From sequence record SRR2962707_3821: a DNA stretch of 35,762 nucleotides; one strand, written 5' to 3'. Below the pieces are notes generated by a model. It was given only the letters and a program-made list of their open reading frames with translations. It searched no databases and was not told the origin of the DNA. A program made the position numbers and the translations under genes. Shown here one piece after another: positions 8,722-35,762 of the stretch. How positions within the stretch are numbered: the first letter of the stretch is position 1; each line of letters starts with the position of its first letter.

Positions 8722-9708
8722 TCAGCGCAAATCTGAAACCTCAAACCGGGAGCGGCTCACAAAGGTATCCCTGGCTTTCAGAAAGCTGGACGGAAAGCTG
8801 GGTTGATTGGGTGTATCCGGCCAGAATTGCGGCTCAATCGCAAGCCCCGCGCAAGGGCCATACGGCGTGCCAAGATGCCCGTTAACCGGCGCGGTATCGA
8901 TATGAAGCCCATTATAAACTTGAACGCCCGGTTGATTGGTCTGAACCTCTAACACAATACCCGACGCTTCCAACCGGCAAACCGTCTGCATCGGAGCGTT
9001 AGAGGCATCAAGGCAGAAATTATGATCCAAAACGGCACCGACATGACGTGGTTGCCGATAATCGAATCCCGTGCCCGCCACCGGTTCGGGCGAACCGACG
9101 GGGATTTGTTCGCCATCCACGGGTAAATACGTATCAGCCAAAACGGTAAGCATATGACCCGAAAGGTCGGTCTGGCCGGACAGGTTCCAGTATCCATGGA
9201 ACGCGGGGCTGAAATACATGTCCGCATCCGACCGCCCTGTAATCTCGATCTCCAACGCGCCCGAGGCGGTCAGACGGTAAACTGCGGTCGCAACGATATT
9301 TCCGGGAAATCCACCCAGCCCATCAGGGTGTTCAAGGGTTAATTCGCACGCGTCCTCAGACACTTGGGTAAAGGTCCAGTTCCGGTCACTAAAGCCGGCG
9401 CATCCGCTGTGTAGCGTCGTACAACCGTTTTCGTTCTTGTCTAGATCGAACAATTCGCCATTAATCTGCATCCGGCCCTTGGCGATCCGATTTGCAACCG
9501 GCCCAACTATGGCCCCGAAATAGCGCATCTGACCCAGATACGAATCGAGGGTTTCGCCACCCAGAACCAGACTGTGCTTAATACCCGCCACCCTATAATC
9601 CTGAAGTGTGGCACCCCAAGATAGAACCCGCGCAACGGCCCCACCAGCGCGCAATTCACACGCGTGGACCAGTGTACCATCGGGAAAAACATCAAACTTT
9701 TCTACCAT
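8722..9708 (-). CDS. galM: Aldose 1-epimerase (galactose mutarotase)
   Basis: VGPVANRI, LHSG, HGYWNL, LDHNF, IEPQFWPD motifs. Confidence 0.85.
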   Translation of the reverse strand: MVEKFDVFPDGTLVHACELRAGGAVARVLSWGATLQDYRVAGIKHSLVLGGETLDSYLGQMRYFGAIVGPVANRIAKGRMQINGELFDLDKNENGCTTLHSGCAGFSDRNWTFTQVSEDACELTLEHPDGLGGFPGNIVATAVYRLTASGALEIEITGRSDADMYFSPAFHGYWNLSGQTDLSGHMLTVLADTYLPVDGEQIPVGSPEPVAGTGFDYRQPRHVGAVLDHNFCLDASNAPMQTVCRLEASGIVLEVQTNQPGVQVYNGLHIDTAPVNGHLGTPYGPCAGLAIEPQFWPDTPNQPSFPSSFLKARDTFVSRSRFEVSDLR

Positions 9709-9879
9709 TTACCCACGTATCCTGCTCTTGAGGTCTGCAGGAATTTCATTCGTATACACAGAGATTCCCTGATAATGTATCAATATTGCCCATATTTTGA
9801 CACGTTTCCCTTACACCTTGTTAATAGATTTAGCGGGGCGTTGATGCTCTGCATGTTAATATTTGGTGGGGCTAGGTAA

Positions 9880-10863
9880 ATGAAAATTCTTGCGGTTGAT
9901 GACGATCCAATCATCCTTGAACTGCTCGCGCATTTCATCGAGACAATGACAGAACACAAGCTGGTTATGGCCTCAAGTGCTGATGAAGCCATTGAAACGA
10001 TCAGATCGAATGCGCGTGCGCCTTTCGATTGCTTCTTGCTTGATATCCAAATGCCCGGAACAGATGGCATCGCCCTTGCTGGCAAAATCCGCGACATGGA
10101 TAACTATGTCGATACGCCTATCCTGATGCTTACCGCGATGTCAGAAAAAGATTACATCGATGCAGCCTTTGCTGCCGGCGCGACGGATTATGTGACCAAA
10201 CCCTTTGAGATGTTCGAACTCAAGGCACGGCTGGCGCTTGTTGAGCGCGCTTTTTCTGAACGCGAAGCGCGCCCGACCAAGATTTTCGCGGCCCAGAAAG
10301 TGAACCCCAACCAAGGTCGGGGCACACCGCCAATTGATCTGCATAACCCTGTCGCGATCCACGACATCGAAAACCTGATCGATTTCATGGCGTTCGAAAA
10401 CTATATCCGCCAGCTTAGCCGGAACGATCTGTTCGGTTCGACCGCCTTTGCCTTTACGATCCGCGGGATTGCACATTATCACGCCACCATGTCGCCGTTC
10501 GAGTTCTATTCCGTGCTGACAGATGTTGCTGAAATCATTTCGGACACATTGGGCGACGGCCAGTTCCTGATGTCCTATGCCGGAAACGGTACATTCGTTT
10601 GCATCACCGAAGCCGGCTGGCAGCCCGATATGAAGGCGCTTGGCCTTAGCGTAAACCTGACCCTCGCCAAGACTGAACTTTTTGACAACCAAGGCGAGCG
10701 GATCGAACCGCGGGTTTGCGCAGGTAATGCGATTAGGTTAATGTGGAAGACGAGCGCGACCGTTATGGACGCAATTTCCGCAGCACATGCCTCGTCCGAG
10801 GAATCCGTTGCTGCTCATGAACATGCACATAAAAACGCATGGCAAATTGGTCTGACTGCATGA
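9880..10863 (+). CDS. Response regulator: N-terminal receiver plus a degenerate GGDEF-like C-terminal domain
   Basis: Receiver residues intact (ILAVDDD, LLDIQMP, MLTA, KPF). C-terminal region has SYAGNGTF where RYGGEEF would lie. Confidence 0.8.
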   Translation: MKILAVDDDPIILELLAHFIETMTEHKLVMASSADEAIETIRSNARAPFDCFLLDIQMPGTDGIALAGKIRDMDNYVDTPILMLTAMSEKDYIDAAFAAGATDYVTKPFEMFELKARLALVERAFSEREARPTKIFAAQKVNPNQGRGTPPIDLHNPVAIHDIENLIDFMAFENYIRQLSRNDLFGSTAFAFTIRGIAHYHATMSPFEFYSVLTDVAEIISDTLGDGQFLMSYAGNGTFVCITEAGWQPDMKALGLSVNLTLAKTELFDNQGERIEPRVCAGNAIRLMWKTSATVMDAISAAHASSEESVAAHEHAHKNAWQIGLTA

Positions 10864-24882: not shown

Positions 24883-26013
24883 TCAAGCCGGTTTCTGCGC
24901 CAACTGCCATTTGATCCGGACGAACCCCATCTGAAGCGCAAGACCGACAAAAACAAACGCCATATCAAAGATCCAAGGATCGTAAATCAACGCGGCTTTG
25001 ATCGACTGACCCAAGATCGACAACACCGTTCCGAGCGCGAAACACGCCAATCCAAACCGCCCCATCAGCTCGACCGGCCAGACCCAACGGCTGGCCGATA
25101 GACGCGTGACCCAGCTTTGCGTCGACAGGAAATACACCAACGCCAAAAGATGCAGCAAACGCGGCGCGGCAAGAAACGTTTTGTCGAAACCCGTTATGTA
25201 GAAGGGAAACCCGTGGTCGTGCAGAAACGACAGCCCGGCGCGGCCATAGAACTGAACGATCTCGATTTTCAACCACGCCAGAACAAAGATCAGAAACGCC
25301 AGCGTTGCCCATCTGGCCCAGGCGACATCGGGGACAAGCCGCTTGCCGGATTTCAACCGCATCCCGGTGGCCAGACCAATCGCGAACAGGAACTGCCACG
25401 CGAAGGGGTTAAAGAACCACCCGCCCTCATTGGGGAAGGCGGGGATATTCAGCCGCGCTTCGCCAGTCACAACCCACAGCAGGAACGACCCGCCAAGCAT
25501 GACCCACATGTTGCGTCGCCCGACCAGAATCATCACCGGCGTCATCAACAGCAATGCCGCGTACATCGGCAAGATGTTCAGATACCCGAACTGATGCCCC
25601 AATGTCGCAATACCGATGGTCGCCTGAACGGGTGCCGCGATCCATGGGGCAACATTGTTAACGCCCCACATCTTTTCGGCACCAAACCAATATGCCGACC
25701 CCATCATAATCGCCAAACTGATCATCGTAATGACCAGATGCACCGAATAAAGCGTCCAGGCGCGGCCCCAGCATTTTGCCACAGCGCGCCAAAGCGGCAG
25801 GCGTTCAAATGCCATCGGATAGGCCAGCCCTGCCGCCATGCCGGACATGAACACAAACCCCTCGGCCGCGTCGGAAAAGCCAAAGTTACGGTTTGTAAAA
25901 AGCTCAAGCGGGTTGCCCGGCACATGGTTGATGAAAATCATCACCAGCGCCAACCCCCGAAAAAAATCAAGACGCGGGTCGCGAGAGGACGCAGGATGGC
26001 TGGATAGGGTCAT
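24883..26013 (-). CDS. opgC: OpgC family membrane protein (OPG succinylation)
   Basis: RDPRLDFFRGL, FINHVP, GFSDAAEGFV, ILPMY, FNPFAWQ motifs. Start moved to ATG 26013, just after the opgH stop. Confidence 0.9.
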   Translation of the reverse strand: MTLSSHPASSRDPRLDFFRGLALVMIFINHVPGNPLELFTNRNFGFSDAAEGFVFMSGMAAGLAYPMAFERLPLWRAVAKCWGRAWTLYSVHLVITMISLAIMMGSAYWFGAEKMWGVNNVAPWIAAPVQATIGIATLGHQFGYLNILPMYAALLLMTPVMILVGRRNMWVMLGGSFLLWVVTGEARLNIPAFPNEGGWFFNPFAWQFLFAIGLATGMRLKSGKRLVPDVAWARWATLAFLIFVLAWLKIEIVQFYGRAGLSFLHDHGFPFYITGFDKTFLAAPRLLHLLALVYFLSTQSWVTRLSASRWVWPVELMGRFGLACFALGTVLSILGQSIKAALIYDPWIFDMAFVFVGLALQMGFVRIKWQLAQKPA

Positions 26014-26026
26014 GGGTGCAGACAAT

Positions 26027-27835
26027 TCAGGCTGGAACAGGTGCGTTCGTCGCATTGGGCGACGCGAATGAAATCGGGGTTTCGGCCCATTGGCCCATGA
26101 TCCGATGGTGATCGGCAATGACGCGCGGCAGGGAAAGCTCTTCGGGTGTGGCGAAAACCACCCCTTTAGACGGCTGCGATGTGAACCAGATGACCAATGG
26201 GGCCAACACCAGCGGAATGCCGATCGGCAAAACCCAAAACATCAGGTTAGCAGCAAAACTATAGGTCAGAAAAATGATCGCGATACCCCAAAGCTGTATC
26301 CACCATCCAGCGGCAAAGGCTTCGGGCAGGGTCAACCGCCCGTCGCCGCGGGTTTGCGCAGGCCACCCGCCATCCCGCCCGCTAAGCACCTGAACCACGG
26401 CGCGCGTCTGCCACATCAGCATAATCGGCGCGTTGATCGACGACATCAGCAATTCCCGCAGCATCCCCCGCAAGGCGGTCAGCGCCCCGCCAAACTGCGA
26501 CACCCGCCCCCGCAATGCCGCATCCAGCAGGATAAGCACCTTGGGAAGGACCAACAAACCAAAGACCCCAACTGCGACACCGACAGCTTTTGAGGTTTGA
26601 TCTGACGGGAAAACCGGAAATAATTGAAAGGGTTCTGGGAAAAAGTCAGGCGCGGGTGCGGTTGCCGTGGCGTATAAGTTAGACGCTAGAAACATCATCC
26701 AGAACAGCGGCGCAATATAGCTTAGGATACCTTGGAATAGCGCAAACCGCGACCAGGCTTTCAGCCCCGGCGCGGAAATCACGCGGATATGTTGCAGGTT
26801 CCCCTGACACCAGCGCCGGTCGCGTTTGGCAAAATCGATCATGTTTTCCGGCCCTTCCTCAAAGGACCCTTCAAGATCGGGATCAACGCGAACCACCCAG
26901 CCTGCGCGCGCCAACAGGGCGGCTTCGACATAATCGTGGCTTAGGATATGGCCGCCAAAAGGGGGCGGTCCAGACAGCTCGGGCAGTGCGCAGCTTTCGG
27001 CAAAGGCGCGCACCCGGACCAAGGCATTGTGGCCCCAAAACGCCCCTGTGGCCCCCTGCATTGCGGCCTGCCCTTGGGCGAATACTGGCGAATAAAAACC
27101 CGCCGCGAATTGCATCGCACGGCCAAACCGGGACTGCGCGCCGATGATACGTGGCAAGGTCTGCAACAGCCCCAGCTTTGGCGCGGCCTGCATCCGGCGC
27201 ACCATTTCCGCAATGGTCGCCCCTTCCATCAAGCTGTCCGCATCAAGGATCAGCGCAAAGTCGTAATTTGCCCCGGAGGTTTCAAAGAAATCCTGAATGT
27301 TGCCAGCCTTGCGCCCGATGTTGCGCACGCGGCGTCGATAGAAAAACCTTTGCGGTTTACCTTCCGCTTTGCGGGCATCTTGCTGGCGGTCCTCCCATAA
27401 ATGGACAAACCAACGCTCCTCCTCGGCCCCGACCCTAGCGTCCTGCGTGTCAGACAGAATGGCGAAATCAAAATGCTCGGTCAGCCCGAGGCGCGCAATG
27501 GCATCATCCATTGCGGCCACGCGGGCAAAAACTGCACCGGGGTCTTCGTTATAGACGGGCATCAAAATGGCAGTGCGGGCGGTGATCGGCGTTGTCATCG
27601 CGGCGGCAGGCTTGCGCATGGCAACCAACCCCTCGACCGATTGCATCGCGCCCCAAGCCAGCCAAAACGTGGTGATAAACACCAATGCGGCGCGCACCCC
27701 GTCGACCATCTGGTACCCATCCGCGGCACCAAACTGCAAAAACAGCGCAGCGGCACCAGCCCCAAGGCCGATGCTCATTACCAACGCAAAGACCCGCGCC
27801 GAAAGCACGCCGCCCGAGAAGGATTTAGCGTTCAT
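26027..27835 (-). CDS. opgH: Glucans biosynthesis glucosyltransferase H (GT2)
   Basis: MPVYNED, GRKAGNI, ILDADS, FWGHNA, LSHDYVEA, RDRRWCQGNLQH motifs. Confidence 0.95.
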   Translation of the reverse strand: MNAKSFSGGVLSARVFALVMSIGLGAGAAALFLQFGAADGYQMVDGVRAALVFITTFWLAWGAMQSVEGLVAMRKPAAAMTTPITARTAILMPVYNEDPGAVFARVAAMDDAIARLGLTEHFDFAILSDTQDARVGAEEERWFVHLWEDRQQDARKAEGKPQRFFYRRRVRNIGRKAGNIQDFFETSGANYDFALILDADSLMEGATIAEMVRRMQAAPKLGLLQTLPRIIGAQSRFGRAMQFAAGFYSPVFAQGQAAMQGATGAFWGHNALVRVRAFAESCALPELSGPPPFGGHILSHDYVEAALLARAGWVVRVDPDLEGSFEEGPENMIDFAKRDRRWCQGNLQHIRVISAPGLKAWSRFALFQGILSYIAPLFWMMFLASNLYATATAPAPDFFPEPFQLFPVFPSDQTSKAVGVAVGVFGLLVLPKVLILLDAALRGRVSQFGGALTALRGMLRELLMSSINAPIMLMWQTRAVVQVLSGRDGGWPAQTRGDGRLTLPEAFAAGWWIQLWGIAIIFLTYSFAANLMFWVLPIGIPLVLAPLVIWFTSQPSKGVVFATPEELSLPRVIADHHRIMGQWAETPISFASPNATNAPVPA

Positions 27836-27838
27836 CTA

Positions 27839-28063
27839 TTAGCGGCCACGCGCCACGAGGCCGAAACTTTGGATCAGAACAGCCATCATCCGGCGCAGCC
27901 CGCTTTCTGCGGCCTCAACAACCGTGATGCGTGGCAGTTCAATCACCTGCTGTGGCATCACCAAAGGGGCATCGGGCAAGGCACCGTCACGCAAAATGGC
28001 CGCTTTGCGAGTTTCAAACGCAAAGGGGTCTGAGATAGAATTTATAGTATTCTGAGCAATCAT
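27839..28063 (-). CDS. Small protein between opgG and opgH (OpgI-like by position)
   Basis: ATG 28063 overlaps the opgG stop (ATGA); stop lies 3 bp before opgH; 74 aa. Synteny matches Rhodobacter sphaeroides opgGIHC. Confidence 0.65.
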   Translation of the reverse strand: MIAQNTINSISDPFAFETRKAAILRDGALPDAPLVMPQQVIELPRITVVEAAESGLRRMMAVLIQSFGLVARGR

Positions 28064-29718
28064 GTGCGCATCCATTGATAAATCCATGTTTCGGTCAACT
28101 TCCGACCAAAACCCGCGACATGGGCAACCAGTTCCACAAGACGTTCATTTCCGCCATCAACATCGATCACCAAACGCCACTTGGTCGTGTTTTCAATCTT
28201 TGACAGGGCGATATGCTGAATTTCGCCATGCGACAGGGTCACGACGGGCTCCATCTTGGCGTCTGCCGGCAGATCGGCCATCAGGCCGCCGTCAAAATCG
28301 ATCACAAACTTGCGCAGCGATTCTTTGGCACCGGACACGCCTGACGTACCGCCCTGCCCCGCCAACGTGTTCACAATCCACGCGCGGTCGCCGTCACGGT
28401 TGGTGCCAAGCGTCCCCCACCGCAAGCGATATGAATATTCACGGCTCTCGCCAGCGCGCGGTTTTTCCAAAGGCACCCAAAAGCTTACGATGTTGTCATT
28501 GCCCTCAAGGTCGGAAGGAATCTCAACCAGTCGTATCGCACCGGCACCCCACTCCCCCTTGGGTTCGACCAAAACCGAAGGGCGGTCTTGATATTGCGCG
28601 CCTGCATCTTGGTAATCGGTGAAATCACGGTCGCGCTGGATCAGACCAAAGGACTTGAGGTTTGGTTCATTCAGATAGGTGCTGGCCAGACGTGGCGGAT
28701 TATTCAGGGGCCGCCACAAGACGTCACCGTCCGTGCGCACCACCATCAATGCGTTGCTGTCATGCACCTGAGGACGGTAATCATCGAATGTATCGCTGTT
28801 TTTTTCGTCGAACAAAAACATCGACGTCAACGCAGCAACGCCCAGTTGTTCGACGTCTTTGCGGAAATGCAGTTTGGCGGTGACATCAATGGTCGTTTCA
28901 GCGCCCGGCCGGATCACAAAGCGGTACGCGCCGGTGCAAGACGGACTGTCGAGCGCAGCATAGACCACAACATTTTCCTGCCCCGCTTTCGGACGTTCCA
29001 GCCAAAACTCGGAAAAGCGCGGAAATTCTTCTTCGCGGCCAAGGCCGGTGTTGATCGCAAGGCCCCGCGCCGACAAGCCATAGCTGCTGTCACGTGCCAA
29101 GGCGCGGAAATAGGATGCGCCGACAAAGGCGATCAGCTCATCGAACATATCAGCCCGGTTCAGGGGCGTATTCAGGCGAAACCCTGCCACGCCGGGCAAC
29201 TCGACATGCTGAGGGACCCGTGGGGCAAGGTCTTCGTAATACAGGAAATCATCTGTGGAAAAGCCCATCGGGGTCTGAAACCCGTCTACGACCTCGTGAA
29301 TGGCCACGGTTTGTTTGTACAGCCACCCCGGGTGAAAGGCGTGCAGGCGGAACAAAACGCCGTCGTCTTGCCAACGGGACCGTTTCGGATCGAACTGGAT
29401 TTTACGGTAGTCATCATAATCAAGGTTTTCGATAACCTCTGGCGCATCAACCGCCGGCACATACTCTGCCTCGGACGCCTGTTTCATCTGCGCGTCCAGC
29501 CATTCAAACGAAAACGGCTGCGGCCCCGCAGGCACGGGTGCCTGACCGTCAGACACGCTTGGTTCAATGGCTGTCTCGGTATCAGACGCTGCAACAGTTT
29601 GCCCCAGTGCCCCACGCGAAAGCGCAACGGCAGCAACCGAGCTGGTGAGAGCGCCCAAAAGGGTGCGGCGATTGAGGTGGAGCAGATCCTGTGTGGGGGA
29701 CCCAAGTTTATTTAGCAT
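28060..29718 (-). CDS. opgG: Glucan biosynthesis protein G/D family (periplasmic, Tat-like signal)
   Basis: NRRTLL twin-arginine signal; YDDYRKIQF, FVGASYFRA, GLSARGLAI, EEFPRF, RPQVHDS, NDNIVSFW motifs. Confidence 0.93.
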   Translation of the reverse strand: MLNKLGSPTQDLLHLNRRTLLGALTSSVAAVALSRGALGQTVAASDTETAIEPSVSDGQAPVPAGPQPFSFEWLDAQMKQASEAEYVPAVDAPEVIENLDYDDYRKIQFDPKRSRWQDDGVLFRLHAFHPGWLYKQTVAIHEVVDGFQTPMGFSTDDFLYYEDLAPRVPQHVELPGVAGFRLNTPLNRADMFDELIAFVGASYFRALARDSSYGLSARGLAINTGLGREEEFPRFSEFWLERPKAGQENVVVYAALDSPSCTGAYRFVIRPGAETTIDVTAKLHFRKDVEQLGVAALTSMFLFDEKNSDTFDDYRPQVHDSNALMVVRTDGDVLWRPLNNPPRLASTYLNEPNLKSFGLIQRDRDFTDYQDAGAQYQDRPSVLVEPKGEWGAGAIRLVEIPSDLEGNDNIVSFWVPLEKPRAGESREYSYRLRWGTLGTNRDGDRAWIVNTLAGQGGTSGVSGAKESLRKFVIDFDGGLMADLPADAKMEPVVTLSHGEIQHIALSKIENTTKWRLVIDVDGGNERLVELVAHVAGFGRKLTETWIYQWMRT

Positions 29719-30110: not shown

Positions 30111-30761
30111 ATGGGAAATCACGTTCCAGAGTTTTTTGAACCGCAGGGGGCACCGGTAGCAGCGGTGTTGGCTTTGTGTGATCGGAGTGATGCCAATACC
30201 TCTGCGCAAGCGGATGCAGGCAAACGTGCAGATCTGATACGATCCGCACAGCGGCACCTTGGGGTGCCTGAAACATCCATCACATCCGAACCAACGGGGG
30301 CACCCGTCTGGCCAAATTCGCACCGCGGCAGCCTCAGCCATTGGGGCAGCAAAACCGTGTGTTTGTTGGCCAAGGGAAACGCATGGGATTGGGGCGCTGA
30401 TATAGAAGGGCACGCGGATGCAGATGCAGTTCAATCGATATCCCAAGTAGCAATGGATGCGAGCGAGCGGCGCATGCTGGCGCAATCCGATGACAAGGGG
30501 CGTTTCTGCGCTTTGGTATTCTCGGCTAAAGAGAGCTTTTTTAAAGCCGCGTTCCCGCGCGTCGGGCGCGTCTTCGGGTTCGAGGCGCTACGGCTTTTGT
30601 CGGCCCCTGGCTCTGGGCAGATGAACTTTGTCACCGCTATTCCGCTCGCGCCGGACCTGCCCCGTGGAACGCAGGTAACGGTTCACTATATTCAGGTACA
30701 AGAAGCGGTCATTACATGGACAGCACTTCAGGCGTCTTCACCTAATTCATTGGCAAGATAG
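30111..30761 (+). CDS. 4'-phosphopantetheinyl transferase (EntD-like)
   Basis: GAPVWP, GSLSH, GADIE, FSAKESFFKA motifs; GAGGG RBS upstream. Confidence 0.85.
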   Translation: MGNHVPEFFEPQGAPVAAVLALCDRSDANTSAQADAGKRADLIRSAQRHLGVPETSITSEPTGAPVWPNSHRGSLSHWGSKTVCLLAKGNAWDWGADIEGHADADAVQSISQVAMDASERRMLAQSDDKGRFCALVFSAKESFFKAAFPRVGRVFGFEALRLLSAPGSGQMNFVTAIPLAPDLPRGTQVTVHYIQVQEAVITWTALQASSPNSLAR

Positions 30762-31291
30762 GCCTGAGCGCTGTGAATAAGCGCATGCACACGGGCCGGC
30801 GACAACCCCATTTCAGATGCTATTTCATTCTGGCGGCGCGCCTTTAGCCGATGTTCTGTAAACGCATGTTTCTGGGTCTCTGGAAGCGCGACAATCGCCC
30901 GCGCCATTGCGCTAAGTGTTTCATATGCAACCAGTGACTGCTCGGCGGTTGGGCCGCTCGCGACCGGCTCTGGTGTGGTGTCATCCATTGATGTCTCATA
31001 GCCGTTGCGGCGCCAGTGATCTAACGCCAGATTGCGTACCATCCGACGCAGTAAACCGCGCGGGCTATTGGGCTGCATTGTGATGGCGCGGCTAGATAAG
31101 CAGCGCAAAGCGGCGTCTTGCAGGACATCTTCGGCGCGGTCACGCGACCCGAGAATTCTGACGGCATCGCATAAAAAGAGCTCTCGTTCTTGCATGAGAT
31201 GCTCGATCAGCTTGTGGCGTGTGGCAATGCAGGCAGGCGCATTCGGAAACAAATTTGCGGGCAAAGATGCAGAATTTCGTATCTCAGACAT
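30728..31291 (-). CDS. Iron-starvation type ECF sigma factor (PvdS/OrbS/RpoI-like)
   Basis: RILGSRDRAEDVLQDA, MVRNLALDHWRR and region 4 LPETQKHAFTEHRL..QNEIASEMGLSP resemble PvdS. Start moved to ATG 31291. Confidence 0.85.
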   Translation of the reverse strand: MSEIRNSASLPANLFPNAPACIATRHKLIEHLMQERELFLCDAVRILGSRDRAEDVLQDAALRCLSSRAITMQPNSPRGLLRRMVRNLALDHWRRNGYETSMDDTTPEPVASGPTAEQSLVAYETLSAMARAIVALPETQKHAFTEHRLKARRQNEIASEMGLSPARVHALIHSAQAYLANELGEDA

Positions 31292-31439
31292 GACGTATCC
31301 CGATGTAGATTTGCGCACTAATCTACCGGGCGCGTTGCTGAGTGGATGCCGGGATCCCGTAACATAGAATACGCGCGACCGCCAACATAGCACCCGCGCG
31401 ATAAGAAGACTTTCCCGCAATAGTTGAAATTAAAGACGA

Positions 31440-32717
31440 TTATTCCGCGGCGATTTCGCGGGTATGTTTCGGTGCCGCCGCAAGCGTCGCGACGATCTCT
31501 TCGGACCTTTGGGCAAGAACCGACAACAACGTATCGCTTAACCCGTGGGTTGCCTCACTGTAGCCTTGAATATAGATCGAAGGGGAAAACCCATCTGCCA
31601 TGGGAAGCCGATAATCGCGCCCCGGTACAGCCTTGAGGCAATATTTTGCGACCCCGTGCAAGATATCTTGATCAAGCGCGCGGGAATACCCGGTTGCACA
31701 GATGATCCGGTCATAATGTTCCGTTCGCAATTGGCCCGCGCTGGACAGTGTTAAAGCCAGCGCATCCCCTGCAACCGCCAACCCTGTCACCTGCGTATCT
31801 GGCTGAATTGAAAGGCGTTTCCCTGCAATCACAGATTGCTCATAGACCATTTCGTAGATGGCGTTAATGACGTCTTCATCGACGACCGAATAGTTCGTTG
31901 CCGCCAGTTCATCCAGCGCGGCATGGCGCGCGTTTTCGGGCAAGGCATAGAAAGCATCGGTTTGGCTGGGGTCAAAAATCTCGTTCACAAAGGGGCTGTC
32001 ATCAGACGGTTTAATCGTGCGACCGCGCATGATCAGATCAAGCTTTGGCGCTTCGGGTCGAACGGCCAGATCGGCAAAAATCTCGGCAGCACTTTGCCCC
32101 GCGCCGATGATGGCAATCCGTTCGCCTGCGCGCAGGCTTGGCACAGCCGTGGTCATATAATCTTTGGAATGTATCACGCGTGGGTCATCGGCAAAATCGC
32201 TGCAAAACGCAGGGAGCTTGGGGGCACCACCCGGCGCGATCACAAGATTGCGCGCCCGATATCTGGTTTCTTGACCGCTGGCCTCGCGCGTGATGACGTC
32301 AATTGCGTCAACCGTGCCGTGATGGTCCACCGCTTCGATCCCGACCACCCTGCGGTCATAATCACAGACCGGAAATTGCGCAGCCACCCAGCATAGGTAA
32401 TCGTTGAATTCCACACGGCTGGGAAAGAATGTCTTGCGATTGATGAACCGGTTCAACCGCCCTTTTTGGTGCAGATAGCTTACAAAGGTATAGGGGCTTT
32501 GCGGGTTACGTTGGCCCACCAGATCCTTGAGGAATGAAATCTGCATATCCGCCCCGGGGATCATCATGCCGGGGTGCCATGCAAATTGCGGCTGTGCCTC
32601 AAGAAATTTCGCACGGATCGGCGTTTGTGCTTCGCCCAATGCGACAGCAAGCGAGAGGTTGGAGGGGCCAAAGCCCACACCGATAAGATCGAATGTCTCT
32701 TGATCAGATGTCGTCAT
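31440..32717 (-). CDS. L-ornithine N5-monooxygenase (PvdA/VbsO/IucD family)
   Basis: GVGFGPSNL, WHPGMM, MQISFLKDLV, GAGQSAAE, PSDDSPFVNEIF, TNYSVVD, CATGY, THGLSDTLLS motifs. Start ATG 32717 with AGGAG RBS. Confidence 0.93.
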   Translation of the reverse strand: MTTSDQETFDLIGVGFGPSNLSLAVALGEAQTPIRAKFLEAQPQFAWHPGMMIPGADMQISFLKDLVGQRNPQSPYTFVSYLHQKGRLNRFINRKTFFPSRVEFNDYLCWVAAQFPVCDYDRRVVGIEAVDHHGTVDAIDVITREASGQETRYRARNLVIAPGGAPKLPAFCSDFADDPRVIHSKDYMTTAVPSLRAGERIAIIGAGQSAAEIFADLAVRPEAPKLDLIMRGRTIKPSDDSPFVNEIFDPSQTDAFYALPENARHAALDELAATNYSVVDEDVINAIYEMVYEQSVIAGKRLSIQPDTQVTGLAVAGDALALTLSSAGQLRTEHYDRIICATGYSRALDQDILHGVAKYCLKAVPGRDYRLPMADGFSPSIYIQGYSEATHGLSDTLLSVLAQRSEEIVATLAAAPKHTREIAAE

Positions 32718-33763
32718 GTCCAGTCTCCTGTGGTGGGAAGGCGCGCGGGGGAAAAGCAAAGCGGTTCGCCGCGTCCGGTTTCGGGCCGAGCCCAAAGGCG
32801 GGCTTCAAAGAAATGCTGGCGTTCGAGTTGAACAAGACTCGCGCGTTTGTGGGAAAAATCGAATTCACGGATATGGGCAAAACCACCGCGAGACAGGTTT
32901 TTCAGCTGCTGCGCATGGCTTGCTTTGGGTTCGCCCATAAGCGATTGCGTGCGTGGTTCTGACAGGAACATGTAATGCATTAGTGAGGGCAGCCATGCGG
33001 TGACATAGTCGGCACCGCGCACGTTTTCTTCGCCAATTAATACATGCCACCCCCGATCCCATGGGCCAGCGTCATATTGCGCGCCTATCCGGTTTTCGCG
33101 CGCCCAGTACAGTTCGAAATACCCGAAATCCTGCCCGTCAAGCGCGCCAATCACCGGCAACATATGCGGGTCAGCCATAAGCGTTTCCAGATAGGCGCGG
33201 TGTTTTTCAATCGTGCCGGATTCTTCAAAAAACTCAGCGACGCGCGGATCATTTTGCCAGCGATGAAACGTCTGAAGATCGCTTTCGTCTAATGCCCGCA
33301 AGGTCAACATCTGATCCAGCCATGGGATATGACGCTGGTACAACAACCCCATTGGTTTAGGCGGGCGGATGGGGTGGCGCCCATACGGCCCTTGTTGCCA
33401 CAGTGTCGGATAATTCGGTGCGGGTTGCGGGCACCAACGGTCGGGAGCCTGCCACAAGGAAGCGGGCAAAACCACAGGCCCGATCTCGGTCCGAAGGGCG
33501 ATGCCTTTGGCCAAGAGATCCGGCAACAGGGGTGCCCAGTTCGGATCGACCAAGCGGATCGCGCATTCGTCCCCGTGGTTGGTCAGCGCTTCAAATGCCG
33601 CAAGCGCGATATCTAGGGCAACAGCACCCGCTTCTTGGGGGGCCGAAAGCTCAAGCCGCCCACCCCCAAGGTCAGAGAGTTGTAACGACGCGTGGTTTTC
33701 CACAAGTACGGAGCTGCCATCGCGCCGCGTACGGATCGGGTAAGGTGTTAGATCGCGGGGCAT
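32714..33763 (-). CDS. Siderophore N-hydroxy-ornithine/lysine acyltransferase (IucB/AlcB/PvdY/VbsA-like GNAT)
   Basis: HPIRPPKP, WQNDPRV, GYFELYWAREN, DRGWHVLIGE, FDFSHKRA motifs. Start ATG 33763 (TGATG overlap with the esterase stop). Confidence 0.9.
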   Translation of the reverse strand: MPRDLTPYPIRTRRDGSSVLVENHASLQLSDLGGGRLELSAPQEAGAVALDIALAAFEALTNHGDECAIRLVDPNWAPLLPDLLAKGIALRTEIGPVVLPASLWQAPDRWCPQPAPNYPTLWQQGPYGRHPIRPPKPMGLLYQRHIPWLDQMLTLRALDESDLQTFHRWQNDPRVAEFFEESGTIEKHRAYLETLMADPHMLPVIGALDGQDFGYFELYWARENRIGAQYDAGPWDRGWHVLIGEENVRGADYVTAWLPSLMHYMFLSEPRTQSLMGEPKASHAQQLKNLSRGGFAHIREFDFSHKRASLVQLERQHFFEARLWARPETGRGEPLCFSPARLPTTGDWT

Positions 33764-34701
33764 CAAATGTCCTTTTCCAATGTCTGAGGGATAGGGGGCG
33801 TTTGCGCCGATGCGGGCCAAAGATCGAAATGTGACCGATCAATCGCAAAGGCCCACCCAAGCGCCCTGTTCACGGCGACCGGCAGAACAGACATGTGCGT
33901 CTCACCGGCGTAGGTTTCATAGGCCACATCCAGCCCGCGCGCGGTCAGCTCGCTGGCCATTTCCTGTGCGGCCGCAATAGTGCGTGTGCTGGTTTTCTCG
34001 GCAAGGCGTGCTTTGACCTCGTCCCCGTGTCTTTGAAACGGGGCAAGGTCAAACCCCTCCCATTCTCCGGCGGACAAGTGCACACGCGGCTGGTTTTCAG
34101 GTGCCGTAAAGGCCTCGAGATGATCCAGTAATGCGCTGTCTTCCCAAGTGATCGCAGGGCTGGCCGCGATCACATTGCGAAACGCACCCGCGTGGTTGAA
34201 CAGCATCCAAAGGGCAAACAGCCCGCCAAAGGAATGGCCAAACAGCGACTGGTTTTGTGGATCGAGACGCACGTGACCGGCCAGAAATTCGCGGACATCC
34301 TCAAGCAGAAAACGCGCCATTTCGCCGCCGCCGCCGGTTTTGACCTCTGGCCCGTCATCATAGAACGGCGGATAGCTGCGCCCGGGTGGTGGGCCCAGAT
34401 CCCAACTGCGGCGAAAGCTGTCGTATGCATCATCACTGGGGTAGCCAACGGCAATCAGCGCGCCCCATCCAAGGTTCGTGCCACTGGGCCAAAAGGCCTG
34501 CGCCCGCATGGTGTCGACCGCTGTGCCAATCACCGCATTCCCGTCCATCAACCAAAGCGCGGGCCAGCCCGCCTCGGGCTCTGGTCCGGGCGGGATCCAT
34601 AAAAACACCCGTCGCACGGCCCCTGTGACGCTGTCGCGCAGGTCAAACCAGCGGGTGCCGCCAACCGTCCATTGCCCTTGACCGACGACTATGCCGCTCA
34701 T
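33763..34701 (-). CDS. IroE/BesA-like alpha/beta hydrolase (putative ferri-siderophore esterase)
   Basis: WPALWLMDGNA, VGYP, nucleophile GHSFGG, AASPAI, ETHMSV; no signal peptide. Start ATG 34701 (ATGA overlap). Confidence 0.85.
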   Translation of the reverse strand: MSGIVVGQGQWTVGGTRWFDLRDSVTGAVRRVFLWIPPGPEPEAGWPALWLMDGNAVIGTAVDTMRAQAFWPSGTNLGWGALIAVGYPSDDAYDSFRRSWDLGPPPGRSYPPFYDDGPEVKTGGGGEMARFLLEDVREFLAGHVRLDPQNQSLFGHSFGGLFALWMLFNHAGAFRNVIAASPAITWEDSALLDHLEAFTAPENQPRVHLSAGEWEGFDLAPFQRHGDEVKARLAEKTSTRTIAAAQEMASELTARGLDVAYETYAGETHMSVLPVAVNRALGWAFAIDRSHFDLWPASAQTPPIPQTLEKDI

Positions 34702-35762
34702 GCTGCGATGGCCTGTGCTTGATCGATGGCTTGGGTCAGATCGGCCAAAAGCACATCTGCCGGCTCTAGACCCGCCGCCAGCCGGATGGTACGCGGGCTG
34801 ACTTTGAACCGCTGAAATGAGTTGGCCGCGCCCGCCAAACCGCACGCAGCCTGCCCCGGCACGATCAGGCTTTCCGGTCCGCCCCAACTGACGCCAAGGC
34901 GGATCACGTCCAGCGCATCACAGAACTGTTCGACGTTCACGCCTTCAGCCAGATCAAAAGCGAACAAACCGCCATAGCCGCGCAGCCCGGCGGGGTGCTC
35001 TGACAGCAAGCCGGGATGATGCACCTTTGTCACCATCGGATGCGCGTTCAAGGCCCCCGCCAGCGTCATGCCGGTTTGCATATGCGCATGCATACGCAGT
35101 TCGAGGGTGCGCATACCGCGCAGCACCAAAAACGCATCCATCGGCGACATGCGTCCACCGAACAGATGTGTGGCCTCGTGGTCGATCTGTTTGATCATCG
35201 CTGATGACCCGGTGACCAGCCCACCCAAAGTGTCGCTATGTCCTGACAGATATTTCGATGCAGCGTGCACGATAAGGTCAATGCCGAGGGCGGCGGGATT
35301 CTGAAAAATCGGTGTCGCCCAGCTGTTGTCGATCACAGAAATCACGCCGTGATGCTGCGCCGCCGCGGCAATTGACCCAAGATCTTGGAGCCTGAACGTC
35401 CAGCTTGTCGGGCTTTCTAGGTACACCAACCGCGCGCCCGGAAGTGCCGCAATCACCCCCGCCGTGTCGGTCCCATCGACATAGACCGTTTCCACGCCGA
35501 ACCGACGCAACACCGTTTCGAACAGCCGGTAAGCGTCAGAATATACGTGTTCGATGGCCACAATCCGGTCACCCGATTTCACAAAGGGCAACACCGCACC
35601 GCATATCGCCGCCATGCCCGACGAAAAACCGCGCGCAGCTTCGGTGCCCTCGAGCCGCGCAATCAGGGCTTCAAGTTCGCTGACTGTCGGATTGTCACCA
35701 CGTGAATACACCAGCTGATCCGAGCGCCCTGAAAAGACGGCCTCGATCTGAGCATAGGTTTC
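34698..35762 (-). CDS. Cys/Met metabolism PLP-dependent enzyme (cystathionine beta-lyase/gamma-synthase family), 5' end outside the window
   Basis: YSRGDNPT, SSGMAAI, LESPT, DNSWATP, PLP-lysine HAASKYLSGHSD, SWGGPESL. The frame stays open from 35711 to the window edge (ETYAQIEAVFSGRSDQLV), so the tracked GTG start is not the real one. Confidence 0.88.
   Translation of the reverse strand, partial: ETYAQIEAVFSGRSDQLVYSRGDNPTVSELEALIARLEGTEAARGFSSGMAAICGAVLPFVKSGDRIVAIEHVYSDAYRLFETVLRRFGVETVYVDGTDTAGVIAALPGARLVYLESPTSWTFRLQDLGSIAAAAQHHGVISVIDNSWATPIFQNPAALGIDLIVHAASKYLSGHSDTLGGLVTGSSAMIKQIDHEATHLFGGRMSPMDAFLVLRGMRTLELRMHAHMQTGMTLAGALNAHPMVTKVHHPGLLSEHPAGLRGYGGLFAFDLAEGVNVEQFCDALDVIRLGVSWGGPESLIVPGQAACGLAGAANSFQRFKVSPRTIRLAAGLEPADVLLADLTQAIDQAQAIAA

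Follow-up and report, generated by a model that had tools for sequence, protein, structure and literature searches.

The gene at 34698..35762 on the minus strand of the window, by which we mean the whole 35,762-nucleotide stretch analysed here, is on the evidence of its sequence very probably the Sulfitobacter orthologue of vbsL, and its product a fold-type I PLP enzyme that appears to have been recruited as an amino-acid epimerase in a vicibactin-type pathway. By analogy, the enzyme most likely epimerises N5-acyl-N5-hydroxy-L-ornithine and so would supply the NRPS with the D form. The gene belongs to the family and to the clade of VbsL, shares the synteny of the vicibactin cluster and is coupled into its operon, and close relatives of the organism carry separate housekeeping paralogues; in its substrate, its epimerase activity and its product, the Sulfitobacter enzyme would follow the Rhizobium pathway. 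Since phylogeny and synteny identify the gene as a vbsL orthologue, it is a routine core part of a known pathway rather than an unexplained addition. The sequence-only reading knew of no such enzyme in the vicibactin core pathway, a premise that is wrong, as PMC12971057 calls VbsL “the characteristic acyl-hydroxyornithine epimerase” and reports that antiSMASH uses it to recognise vicibactin clusters.

Results

Extent and family of the PLP gene

The open reading frame runs open into the edge of the window, which holds 354 encoded amino acids. Judged from a 98%-identical locus of Sulfitobacter sp. CW3 (L004), the full gene has 388 codons, about 34 N-terminal codons lying beyond the window. In translation, the PLP-lysine motif HAASK is found at 35253..35267 and the motif SWGGPESL at 34866..34889, both on the minus strand. 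The Lys of HAASK, the residue that binds PLP in this family, corresponds in the alignment to the Lys of HSVSK in methionine gamma-lyase 3acz, of HSATK in the racemase 9iz5 and of HSATK in methionine gamma-lyase 1e5e.

The protein matches PF01053 (Cys_Met_Meta_PP) with an E-value of 9.4e-90 and 301.3 bits (cut-off 27), covering profile positions 29-380 of 381, the N-terminal gap being due solely to the end of the window; from the sequence, its family is beyond doubt. Among NCBIfam models, NF004627/PRK05968, labelled “hypothetical protein” and with a cut-off of 508 bits, fits best; it is passed by the truncated protein (513.7 bits), by the full-length form (543.7 bits) and by the protein at the vbsL position of R. 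johnstonii 3841 (661.3 bits). The earlier description of a transsulfuration-family gene that overlaps the start of the esterase gene and carries HAASK and SWGG.ESL is thereby borne out. Its label “MetC-like” is loose, the cystathionine beta-lyase model TIGR01324 giving 246.5 bits for the full-length homologue P0121 where 365.9 are needed, with NF004627 as the best model. For the same homologue, TIGR02080 (213.9 against 504.55 bits), TIGR01325 (237.2 against 510.05) and TIGR01326 (222.5 against 495.1) likewise remain below their cut-offs. The best among the lyase and synthase equivalog models, none of which was passed, is the NCBIfam model for methionine gamma-lyase, at 289 bits against 549.7. 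Methionine gamma-lyase, MetC and cystathionine gamma-synthase have the PF01053 fold, and their PLP lysine and YSR, DN and IRL stretches align with the window protein, but every one of their equivalog cut-offs is missed, and the Ser that the lyases have three residues before the lysine (K-3) is Ala here.

The second NCBIfam model is that of the archaeal L-alanine/L-glutamate racemase (NF041088), which at 335.5 bits fails its cut-off of 629, and among solved structures the racemase 9iz5 (234.6 bits) likewise comes second, after a methionine gamma-lyase (238 bits). Close to this branch of the family there is thus another precedent for racemase chemistry. The archaeal enzyme has the same fold and family, shares SWG with the window protein, and both have a Y-S-x-A stretch at the position of the lyase Y-G-C-T; it differs, however, in retaining HSATK, in acting on simple amino acids and in having no siderophore context. 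We rejected HAASK as a sign of racemase chemistry in general, as the solved archaeal racemase has HSATK.

Phylogeny and clade-marking residues

In a FastTree phylogeny of 157 rows, a single branch (support 98) separates 83 siderophore-linked rows from 74 unlinked ones. An IQ-TREE analysis under LG+C20 of 59 picked rows placed all 32 linked rows in one clade (SH-aLRT 97), which takes in both the window protein and the vbsL gene of R. johnstonii 3841 and leaves the non-alphaproteobacterial homologues outside. The same division is seen in the residues: HAASK occurs in 87/87 linked rows and in 0/74 unlinked rows, and in the alignment the K-3 residue is Ala in all 83 clade rows and Ser in all 84 others. 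SWGGP is present in 85 of the 87 linked rows and in no unlinked row; Pro330 is carried by 98% of clade rows as against 0% outside the clade, and it is one of six clade-specific residues in the alignment (V43, A201, T212, P330, F350 and R352).

Overall similarity does not discriminate in this way. The window protein is 50% identical (E-value 2e-128) to the protein at the vbsL position of R. johnstonii, with HAASK and SWGGPE in both, and 51% identical to an unlinked Rhizobium paralogue that adjoins a GntR regulator and a sugar ABC transporter; these values being about equal, the assignment to vbsL rests on tree and synteny and not on similarity. The unlinked PRK05968-family paralogues of Alphaproteobacteria, such as that of Rhizobium binae p3, with the same two neighbours, are close look-alikes (51% identity, NF004627 at 725.9 bits, SWGG present), but they have HSASK for HAASK and His rather than Pro after SWGG, form separate clades (support 100) and have no siderophore genes nearby.

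Gene context across homologues

Within 10 kb of the PLP gene, the best 80 loci by family alignment contain an acyltransferase in 79 cases, a monooxygenase in 79 and an NRPS in 78, in a set that is biased towards the clade because one of the two search patterns was HAASKYL itself. Two further sets are free of this bias. Patterns that avoid the lysine motif yielded 74 more distant homologues, not one of which has an acyltransferase, monooxygenase or NRPS nearby. A reverse search that used only the acyltransferase gave 80 loci; in 33 of these a PLP homologue is encoded no more than 10 kb away, with HAASK in 33/33. All 32 clade rows adjoin a VbsA-type acyltransferase, an ornithine hydroxylase or a VbsS-type NRPS. 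The clade phylogeny and neighbourhood analysis proposed from the sequence alone, with its expected linkage to PvdA/IucB-type genes, thus came out positive. Of the 80 VbsL-type loci, 76 have a sigma factor homologue within 10 kb, and 44, including Rhizobium loci with known vicibactin, have no esterase homologue within that distance. The pair of PLP and esterase genes is kept in 18 of 19 Rhodobacterales-type loci.

The operon and its relation to the Rhizobium cluster

The PLP gene is translationally coupled to its downstream neighbour on the minus strand through an ATGA overlap read directly at 34698..34701, in which its TGA stop (34700..34698) overlaps the ATG (34701..34699) of the esterase gene. 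This gene (33763..34701, minus; PF00756, E-value 1.9e-14) encodes 312 amino acids from the ATG at 34701 and is of the IroE/EstB/BesA siderophore esterase type, its best solved relatives being BesA 2qm0 (E-value 3.7e-29) and the fungal siderophore-degrading esterase 6guo (5.3e-28), along with the triacetylfusarinine C esterase 6gud, PfeE 6gi0 and IroE 2gzr. Its TGA has the single base 33763 in common with the ATG of a VbsA-type N5-hydroxyornithine acyltransferase gene (Acetyltransf_8; 32714..33763, minus; PF13523, E-value 1.1e-51), which is 46% identical to the gene at the vbsA position in R. johnstonii. The acyltransferase stop in turn overlaps, as ATGA at 32717..32714, the start of an L-ornithine N5-monooxygenase gene (31440..32717, minus, ATG at 32717; PF13434, E-value 4.2e-114), only 33% identical to the gene at the Rhizobium vbsO position. 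Beyond it lie an ECF sigma factor gene at the RpoI position (30728..31420, minus, coordinates of the longest open reading frame; Sigma70_r2 and r4_2) and a 4'-phosphopantetheinyl transferase gene at the VbsP position (30111..30761, plus; PF01648 and PF17837). The window ends before the remaining genes, which are known from L004: a MATE gene, which lies upstream of the PLP gene and overlaps it in another ATGA, an MbtH gene, and a 1292-residue NRPS with Condensation, AMP-binding, PP-binding and Thioesterase domains (C-A-T-TE), 49% identical to the Rhizobium NRPS.

On pRL12 of R. johnstonii 3841 the genes run, away from the sigma factor, PLP, MATE, GNAT, MbtH, NRPS, monooxygenase and PPTase, an order that matches the published one, rpoI, vbsLDAGSO(P), as given in PMC6421345. 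The review PMC9694258 mentions vicibactin but not the vicibactin enzymes. The window protein and Rhizobium VbsL have in common the Pfam family, NF004627, the clade in both trees, and HAASK and SWGGPE, and their clusters share the MATE pump, VbsA-type acyltransferase, ornithine hydroxylase, MbtH, single-module NRPS, ECF sigma factor and PPTase. The clusters differ in gene order (MATE-L-esterase-A-O in Sulfitobacter, A-D-L in Rhizobium), in the esterase inserted directly downstream of the Sulfitobacter PLP gene, and in that Rhodobacterales-type loci are without VbsC in their 10-kb flanks and have a partner hydroxylase of 33% identity. The added esterase, the lack of VbsC in these flanks and the divergent hydroxylase imply a possible difference from Rhizobium in the acyl group and in the final product.

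Discussion

Proposed pathway

By analogy with the Rhizobium pathway, L-ornithine would be hydroxylated at N5 by the monooxygenase, and the hydroxyornithine would be converted to a hydroxamate by the VbsA-type acyltransferase. The VbsL-type enzyme could then bind the free acyl-hydroxyornithine as an external aldimine on the Lys of HAASK, take off the alpha-proton and put it back on the opposite face, to give the D-isomer. The single-module C-A-T-TE NRPS, with MbtH, would oligomerise and cyclise this monomer to a vicibactin-type trihydroxamate macrolactone, for which the MATE pump is the likely exporter. Among the options raised by the sequence-only reading, VbsL clade and synteny favour that of a tailoring racemase by which a D-residue is made.

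Alternative roles

The overlap with the esterase gene invites another reading, in which the two enzymes act in salvage: once an imported ferric macrolactone has been hydrolysed, the PLP enzyme would return the D-monomer to the L form, or degrade it, for reuse. The esterase is indeed of a siderophore-hydrolysing type (IroE/EstB/BesA), the two genes share an ATGA, and they stay together in 18/19 Rhodobacterales-type loci. Yet the PLP gene is coupled equally to the MATE exporter upstream and shares its operon with the biosynthetic acyltransferase and hydroxylase, and the 44 of 80 VbsL-type loci that have no esterase within 10 kb, Rhizobium vicibactin loci among them, indicate that it is kept independently of the esterase. 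Recycling with the esterase, as suggested earlier, is therefore improbable as the primary role, although, an epimerase being reversible, salvage could coexist with the biosynthetic one. We regard as more improbable still a tailoring reaction of the lyase or synthase type, that is, a beta/gamma-elimination or replacement leading to a non-proteinogenic or sulfur-containing block. Characterised members of the family are mostly lyases and sulfhydrylases, and the best solved match is a methionine gamma-lyase, but the window protein lies in the clade of a gene named epimerase, stays below the cut-offs of all lyase and synthase equivalog models, and has no sulfur-handling or additional precursor genes in its cluster; the elimination, replacement or sulfur-containing block envisaged from the sequence alone finds no support in the analysis.

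That the gene is a housekeeping transsulfuration or methionine enzyme (MetC, MetB or MetZ) merely adjoining siderophore genes is hardly credible. Public annotations of close homologues do read “cystathionine beta-lyase/cystathionine gamma-synthase”, but the MetC, MetB and MetZ equivalog cut-offs are all missed, the gene is translationally coupled within the operon, and the relatives covered by the paralogue check (G002-G005) have other full-length PF01053 genes. Three close Sulfitobacter genomes (G002, G003 and G004) contain four full-length PF01053 matches each, the vbsL-type copy and three others, and the more distant Pseudosulfitobacter genome G005 contains five, the vbsL-type copy and four others; in all four genomes the vbsL-type copy is the lowest-scoring of these matches. 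In S. marinus the other three are MetY-like (TIGR01326, 582 bits, above the cut-off), MetZ-like (TIGR01325, 496 bits) and CGS/CGL-like, so that the case named beforehand as counting against a siderophore role, a gene that is the sole housekeeping metC/metB orthologue, does not hold in these close relatives.

A possible Rhodobacterales variant

Returning to the epimerase, one could speculate that the Rhodobacterales clusters represent a separate variant of the vicibactin system rather than a copy of it, a reading that we put forward only tentatively. It draws on the 19 Rhodobacterales-type loci, in which no VbsC N-acetyltransferase or FhuF reductase homologue was found within 10 kb (0/19) and an esterase is part of the operon in 18, and on the affinity of the hydroxylase, which shares 43-53% identity with its counterparts in clusters that lack VbsL and 33% with Rhizobium VbsO. 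If it is correct, the product would be an undescribed marine congener, a non-acetylated, fusarinine-C-like macrolactone possibly with another acyl group, from which iron would be freed by hydrolysis of the esters, the route that fungi take with triacetylfusarinine C, and the epimerase might also recycle the freed D-monomer. A literature search for the chemistry of a Sulfitobacter siderophore found none, and the entries listed by taxonomy in the VbsL column of the available part of the supplementary table of PMC12971057 include no Sulfitobacter or Rhodobacter.

Implications

The findings on the PLP gene raise no new mechanistic question, and the practical gain is a better annotation of this gene and its relatives, which publicly bear the names “cystathionine beta-lyase/gamma-synthase”, “methionine gamma-lyase” or “PLP-dependent transferase”. 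The change of Ser to Ala at K-3 (HAASK), together with SWGGP, provides a simple marker by which members of the siderophore epimerase clade can be told from similar-looking paralogues. Genes for vicibactin-type siderophores occur commonly among marine Roseobacteraceae and Paracoccaceae, also on plasmids of diatom-associated Pseudosulfitobacter, for which the exchange of iron with algae is of ecological interest.

The PLP gene and its operon

The PLP gene occupies 34698..35762 on the minus strand as an open reading frame of 354 aa that runs off the end of the window, with ~34 N-terminal codons falling outside it. Its translation matches PF01053 (Cys/Met metabolism PLP-dependent enzyme) with an E-value of 9.4e-90, covering positions 29-380 of the 381-position profile, and contains the motifs HAASK (35267..35253) and SWGGPESL (34889..34866). 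The stop codon (TGA, 34700..34698) and the start codon of the next gene (ATG, 34701..34699) overlap in an ATGA, and such tight coupling is also present further down this minus-strand operon, where the esterase stop and acyltransferase start share one base (33763) and the acyltransferase stop and monooxygenase start form another ATGA (32717..32714). This confirms in every detail the observation by the sequence-only reading of a PLP-family gene with HAASK and SWGG.ESL overlapping an esterase start.

On the minus strand, the PLP gene is followed by a PF00756 esterase (33763..34701; the protein begins MSGIVVG at the ATGA junction), an Acetyltransf_8 (IucB/VbsA-type) acyltransferase, a Lys_Orn_oxgnase ornithine monooxygenase (31440..32717) and an ECF sigma factor; on the plus strand there is a 4'-phosphopantetheinyl transferase (PPTase) gene. 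Just past the latter is an osmoregulated periplasmic glucan set (MdoG/OpgG, MdoH/OpgH glucosyltransferase and OpgC; 24883..29718, minus strand), which has no connection with the siderophore genes and bounds the cluster on that side. What lies beyond the window edge can be seen in Sulfitobacter sp. CW3 (locus L004), whose cluster genes are 96-100% identical to those of the window (PLP protein 98%): a MATE exporter gene precedes the PLP gene, its stop overlapping the PLP start as ATGA, and MbtH and a 1292-aa NRPS (Condensation, AMP-binding, PP-binding and Thioesterase domains) are divergent from it. A Pseudosulfitobacter plasmid carries the same gene block together with genes for an iron ABC transporter and for a siderophore receptor of the TonB-dependent type.

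Relation to VbsL

In Rhizobium johnstonii 3841, plasmid pRL12 has, beside an ECF sigma factor, genes for a PLP enzyme, MATE, GNAT, MbtH, NRPS, a SidA/IucD/PvdA-family monooxygenase and a PPTase. This order equals that of the vicibactin cluster, rpoI, vbsLDAGSO(P), as printed in an excerpt of PMC6421345, and the strain is cited as a vicibactin producer in a passage of PMC12815270. VbsL is described, in the relevant section of PMC12971057 and its preprint version, as the "characteristic acyl-hydroxyornithine epimerase" and serves as the vicibactin marker in the antiSMASH NRP-metallophore rule. The sequence-only reading, which knew of no such enzyme in the vicibactin core pathway, was thus mistaken on this point, although its suggestion of a racemase giving a D-residue stands, in the form of an enzyme that is very probably a vbsL-type epimerase, as judged from the tree and from synteny.

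Identity between the window protein and the PLP protein of pRL12 is 50% (E 2e-128); the latter also has HAASK and SWGGPE, and both window-type and pRL12 proteins pass NCBIfam NF004627/PRK05968, labelled just "hypothetical protein". A second Rhizobium family member, which has a GntR regulator and a sugar ABC transporter as neighbours, reads HSASK; since this unlinked paralogue is equally similar to the window protein (51% identity), orthology had to be tested beyond similarity.

Phylogeny and sequence markers

The siderophore-linked members fall in one clade in the phylogeny that the sequence-only reading had proposed as a check. In a FastTree analysis of the 157 rows left once four duplicate loci had been dropped, a single branch (support 98) splits all 83 linked from all 74 unlinked rows. 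A short IQ-TREE search under LG+C20 on 59 picked rows (32 linked, 27 unlinked) places all 32 linked rows, the R. johnstonii gene included, in one clade with an SH-aLRT of 97; the supports are SH-type only and the outgroups have long branches. Within this clade, the window protein belongs to a subclade of 13 Rhodobacterales rows (support 99). Two unlinked alphaproteobacterial clades adjoin the clade of 32, and the homologues from Firmicutes, Spirochaetes and elsewhere are placed outside it.

One sister clade (L003, positions 8881-10053, and L008-L017) consists of alphaproteobacterial PRK05968-family PLP enzymes with HSASK and SWGGH and without siderophore genes; in Rhizobium binae the gene has a GntR regulator on one side and a sugar ABC transporter on the other. 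With epimerase and racemase branches close to it, this clade may hold another amino-acid racemase. VbsL-type clusters also occur outside Alphaproteobacteria, in Trinickia diaoshuihuensis (L114, Burkholderiaceae) and in a record titled Nocardioides marinus (L199). In the tree, the position of the Trinickia copy within those of Rhizobiaceae and Brucellaceae suggests horizontal transfer; the "Nocardioides" contig, with its cluster of Rhodobacterales type, may be contaminant DNA or wrongly labelled.

HAASK is found in 87/87 linked and 0/74 unlinked rows, the latter reading HS-x-[ST]-K. Aligning 83 clade rows with 84 others (13 sister, 59 distant and 12 housekeeping copies) gave six clade-specific positions (conserved to 95% or more in the clade and shared to 5% or less outside it), V43, A201, T212, P330, F350 and R352 in full-length numbering. 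All 84 non-clade rows have Ser at the position of A201, and in this family it is that Ser which contacts the PLP phosphate. The Ala of HAASK is not a general racemase trait, a solved archaeal L-alanine/L-glutamate racemase having HSATK. The Y-S-R, D-N-S-W and I-R-L stretches, which in this family bind the cofactor and the substrate alpha-carboxylate, align with those of methionine gamma-lyases, as would fit an enzyme whose substrate is a free alpha-amino acid.

Gene neighbourhood

Three sets of loci were searched by tblastn with the cluster proteins, counting neighbours within 10 kb if at least half of the query was covered. Set one, retrieved with peptide patterns outside the lysine motif, comprised four loci from Sulfitobacter, each with the complete cluster, and 75 others, 74 of which gave a usable PLP match (L081 is frameshifted, on a 1.9-kb contig); none of these 74 had an acyltransferase, monooxygenase, NRPS or esterase nearby. 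Among 76 unlinked loci, including the Rhizobium paralogue locus, flanks of at least 5 kb were available on both sides in 48, on one side only in 21 and on neither in 7, so that for most the absence of siderophore genes is real. Set two, the best 80 loci from an alignment of 20 homologues, is biased towards HAASK, as one of its two patterns was HAASKYL; here the acyltransferase and the monooxygenase were each present in 79/80 loci, the NRPS in 78, the sigma factor in 76 and MATE in 69. The gene-neighbourhood check put forward by the sequence-only reading thus has a positive outcome, the clade being found next to PvdA/IucB-type genes.

Set three was retrieved via the acyltransferase alone: 33 of its 80 loci had a PLP homologue within 10 kb, with HAASK in all 33, and the 47 that had none are other hydroxamate clusters (Azospirillum, Duganella, Cupriavidus, Methylobacterium, Bradyrhizobium and others). 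Nine Chelatococcus, Rhodomicrobium, Methylobacterium and Duganella loci (L210, L211, L225, L227, L235, L239, L241, L243 and L251) have acyltransferase, hydroxylase, MATE and an NRPS 43-47% identical to that of Sulfitobacter, yet lack a PLP homologue within 10 kb; their product may be an all-L relative of vicibactin, or the D-residue may arise by another route.

Proposed pathway and alternative roles

Heemstra, Walsh and Sattely (2009) reportedly described PLP-dependent epimerisation of free N5-acyl-N5-hydroxy-L-ornithine ahead of NRPS loading. While homology, membership in the clade, synteny and the coupling of the operon genes are established by the present data, the chemistry and product of the Sulfitobacter pathway are inferred: the monooxygenase would convert L-ornithine to N5-hydroxy-L-ornithine, the acyltransferase would turn this into the hydroxamate monomer, and the VbsL-type enzyme would epimerise the monomer at C-alpha via a PLP aldimine formed with the HAASK lysine. 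The single-module NRPS, primed by the PPTase and partnered by MbtH, would then load, trimerise and cyclise the D-monomer, the MATE pump would export the product, and the ECF sigma factor would direct transcription of the cluster.

The gene could instead be a housekeeping enzyme merely placed in a siderophore cluster, and the sequence-only reading had raised the possibility of a sole metC/metB. Relatives speak against this: PF01053 has four full-length matches in each of three Sulfitobacter genomes, whose vbsL-type proteins share 93-95% identity with the full-length homologue of L004, and five in one Pseudosulfitobacter genome, the vbsL-type copy scoring lowest of the full-length matches in all four genomes. 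In S. marinus, the other copies best match O-acetylhomoserine sulfhydrylase (TIGR01326, 582 bits, over the cut-off), O-succinylhomoserine sulfhydrylase (TIGR01325, 496 bits against a cut-off of 510) and a cystathionine gamma-synthase/lyase type, while the vbsL-type protein reaches none of the NCBIfam equivalog cut-offs for MetC, MetB, MetZ and MetY. We consider a housekeeping role extremely improbable, and tailoring by elimination or replacement very unlikely. Salvage together with the adjoining esterase also seems unlikely: an esterase homologue lies within 10 kb in 36/80 VbsL-type loci (18/19 Rhodobacterales-type and 18/61 others, mostly Phyllobacterium, Bradyrhizobium and Methylopila), and the PLP gene is retained in the other 44, so the esterase cannot be necessary for what it primarily does.

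Proposed iron release and the Rhodobacterales variant

By homology, the esterase of the window belongs with the siderophore esterases of IroE/EstB/BesA type. The solved structures closest to it all come from siderophore esterases, namely BesA (2qm0, E 3.7e-29) and an Aspergillus siderophore-degrading esterase (6guo, 5.3e-28), followed by triacetylfusarinine C esterase (6gud), the ferric enterobactin esterase PfeE (6gi0) and IroE (2gzr). Vicibactin, like fusarinine C, is a cyclic triester, so the obvious role for the enzyme would be to release iron by hydrolysing the ester bonds. Its presence in nearly all Rhodobacterales-type loci, against its absence from the Rhizobium loci, several of which have FhuF instead, suggests hydrolytic rather than reductive iron release in the marine version. 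FhuF is found within 10 kb in 0/19 Rhodobacterales-type loci. Likewise, a small GNAT at the vbsC position (VbsC-type N2-acetyltransferase) occurs within 10 kb in 0/19 Rhodobacterales-type but 26/61 other VbsL loci, so the marine product may be without N2-acetyl groups. The ornithine hydroxylase of the window shares only 33% identity with the gene at the Rhizobium vbsO position, against 43-53% with its counterparts in VbsL-less acyltransferase clusters (Azospirillum, Chelatococcus, Duganella and others); the cluster looks mosaic.

Partial similarity to vicibactin has been noted for Paracoccus NRPS clusters (an excerpt of PMC8273931), and a Pseudosulfitobacter pseudonitzschiae cluster is called "similar to" vicibactin in a passage of PMC12376047; in open-access text we found no description of the chemistry of the Sulfitobacter/Pseudosulfitobacter vicibactin-type siderophore. 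Both the enzyme type to which the PLP gene belongs and its pathway have been described before, and such clusters are already flagged by genome-mining tools. The Rhodobacterales version is a modest variation on the vicibactin cluster, in which the added esterase, the lack of VbsC and FhuF nearby and the divergent hydroxylase make a non-acetylated congener with hydrolytic iron release plausible.
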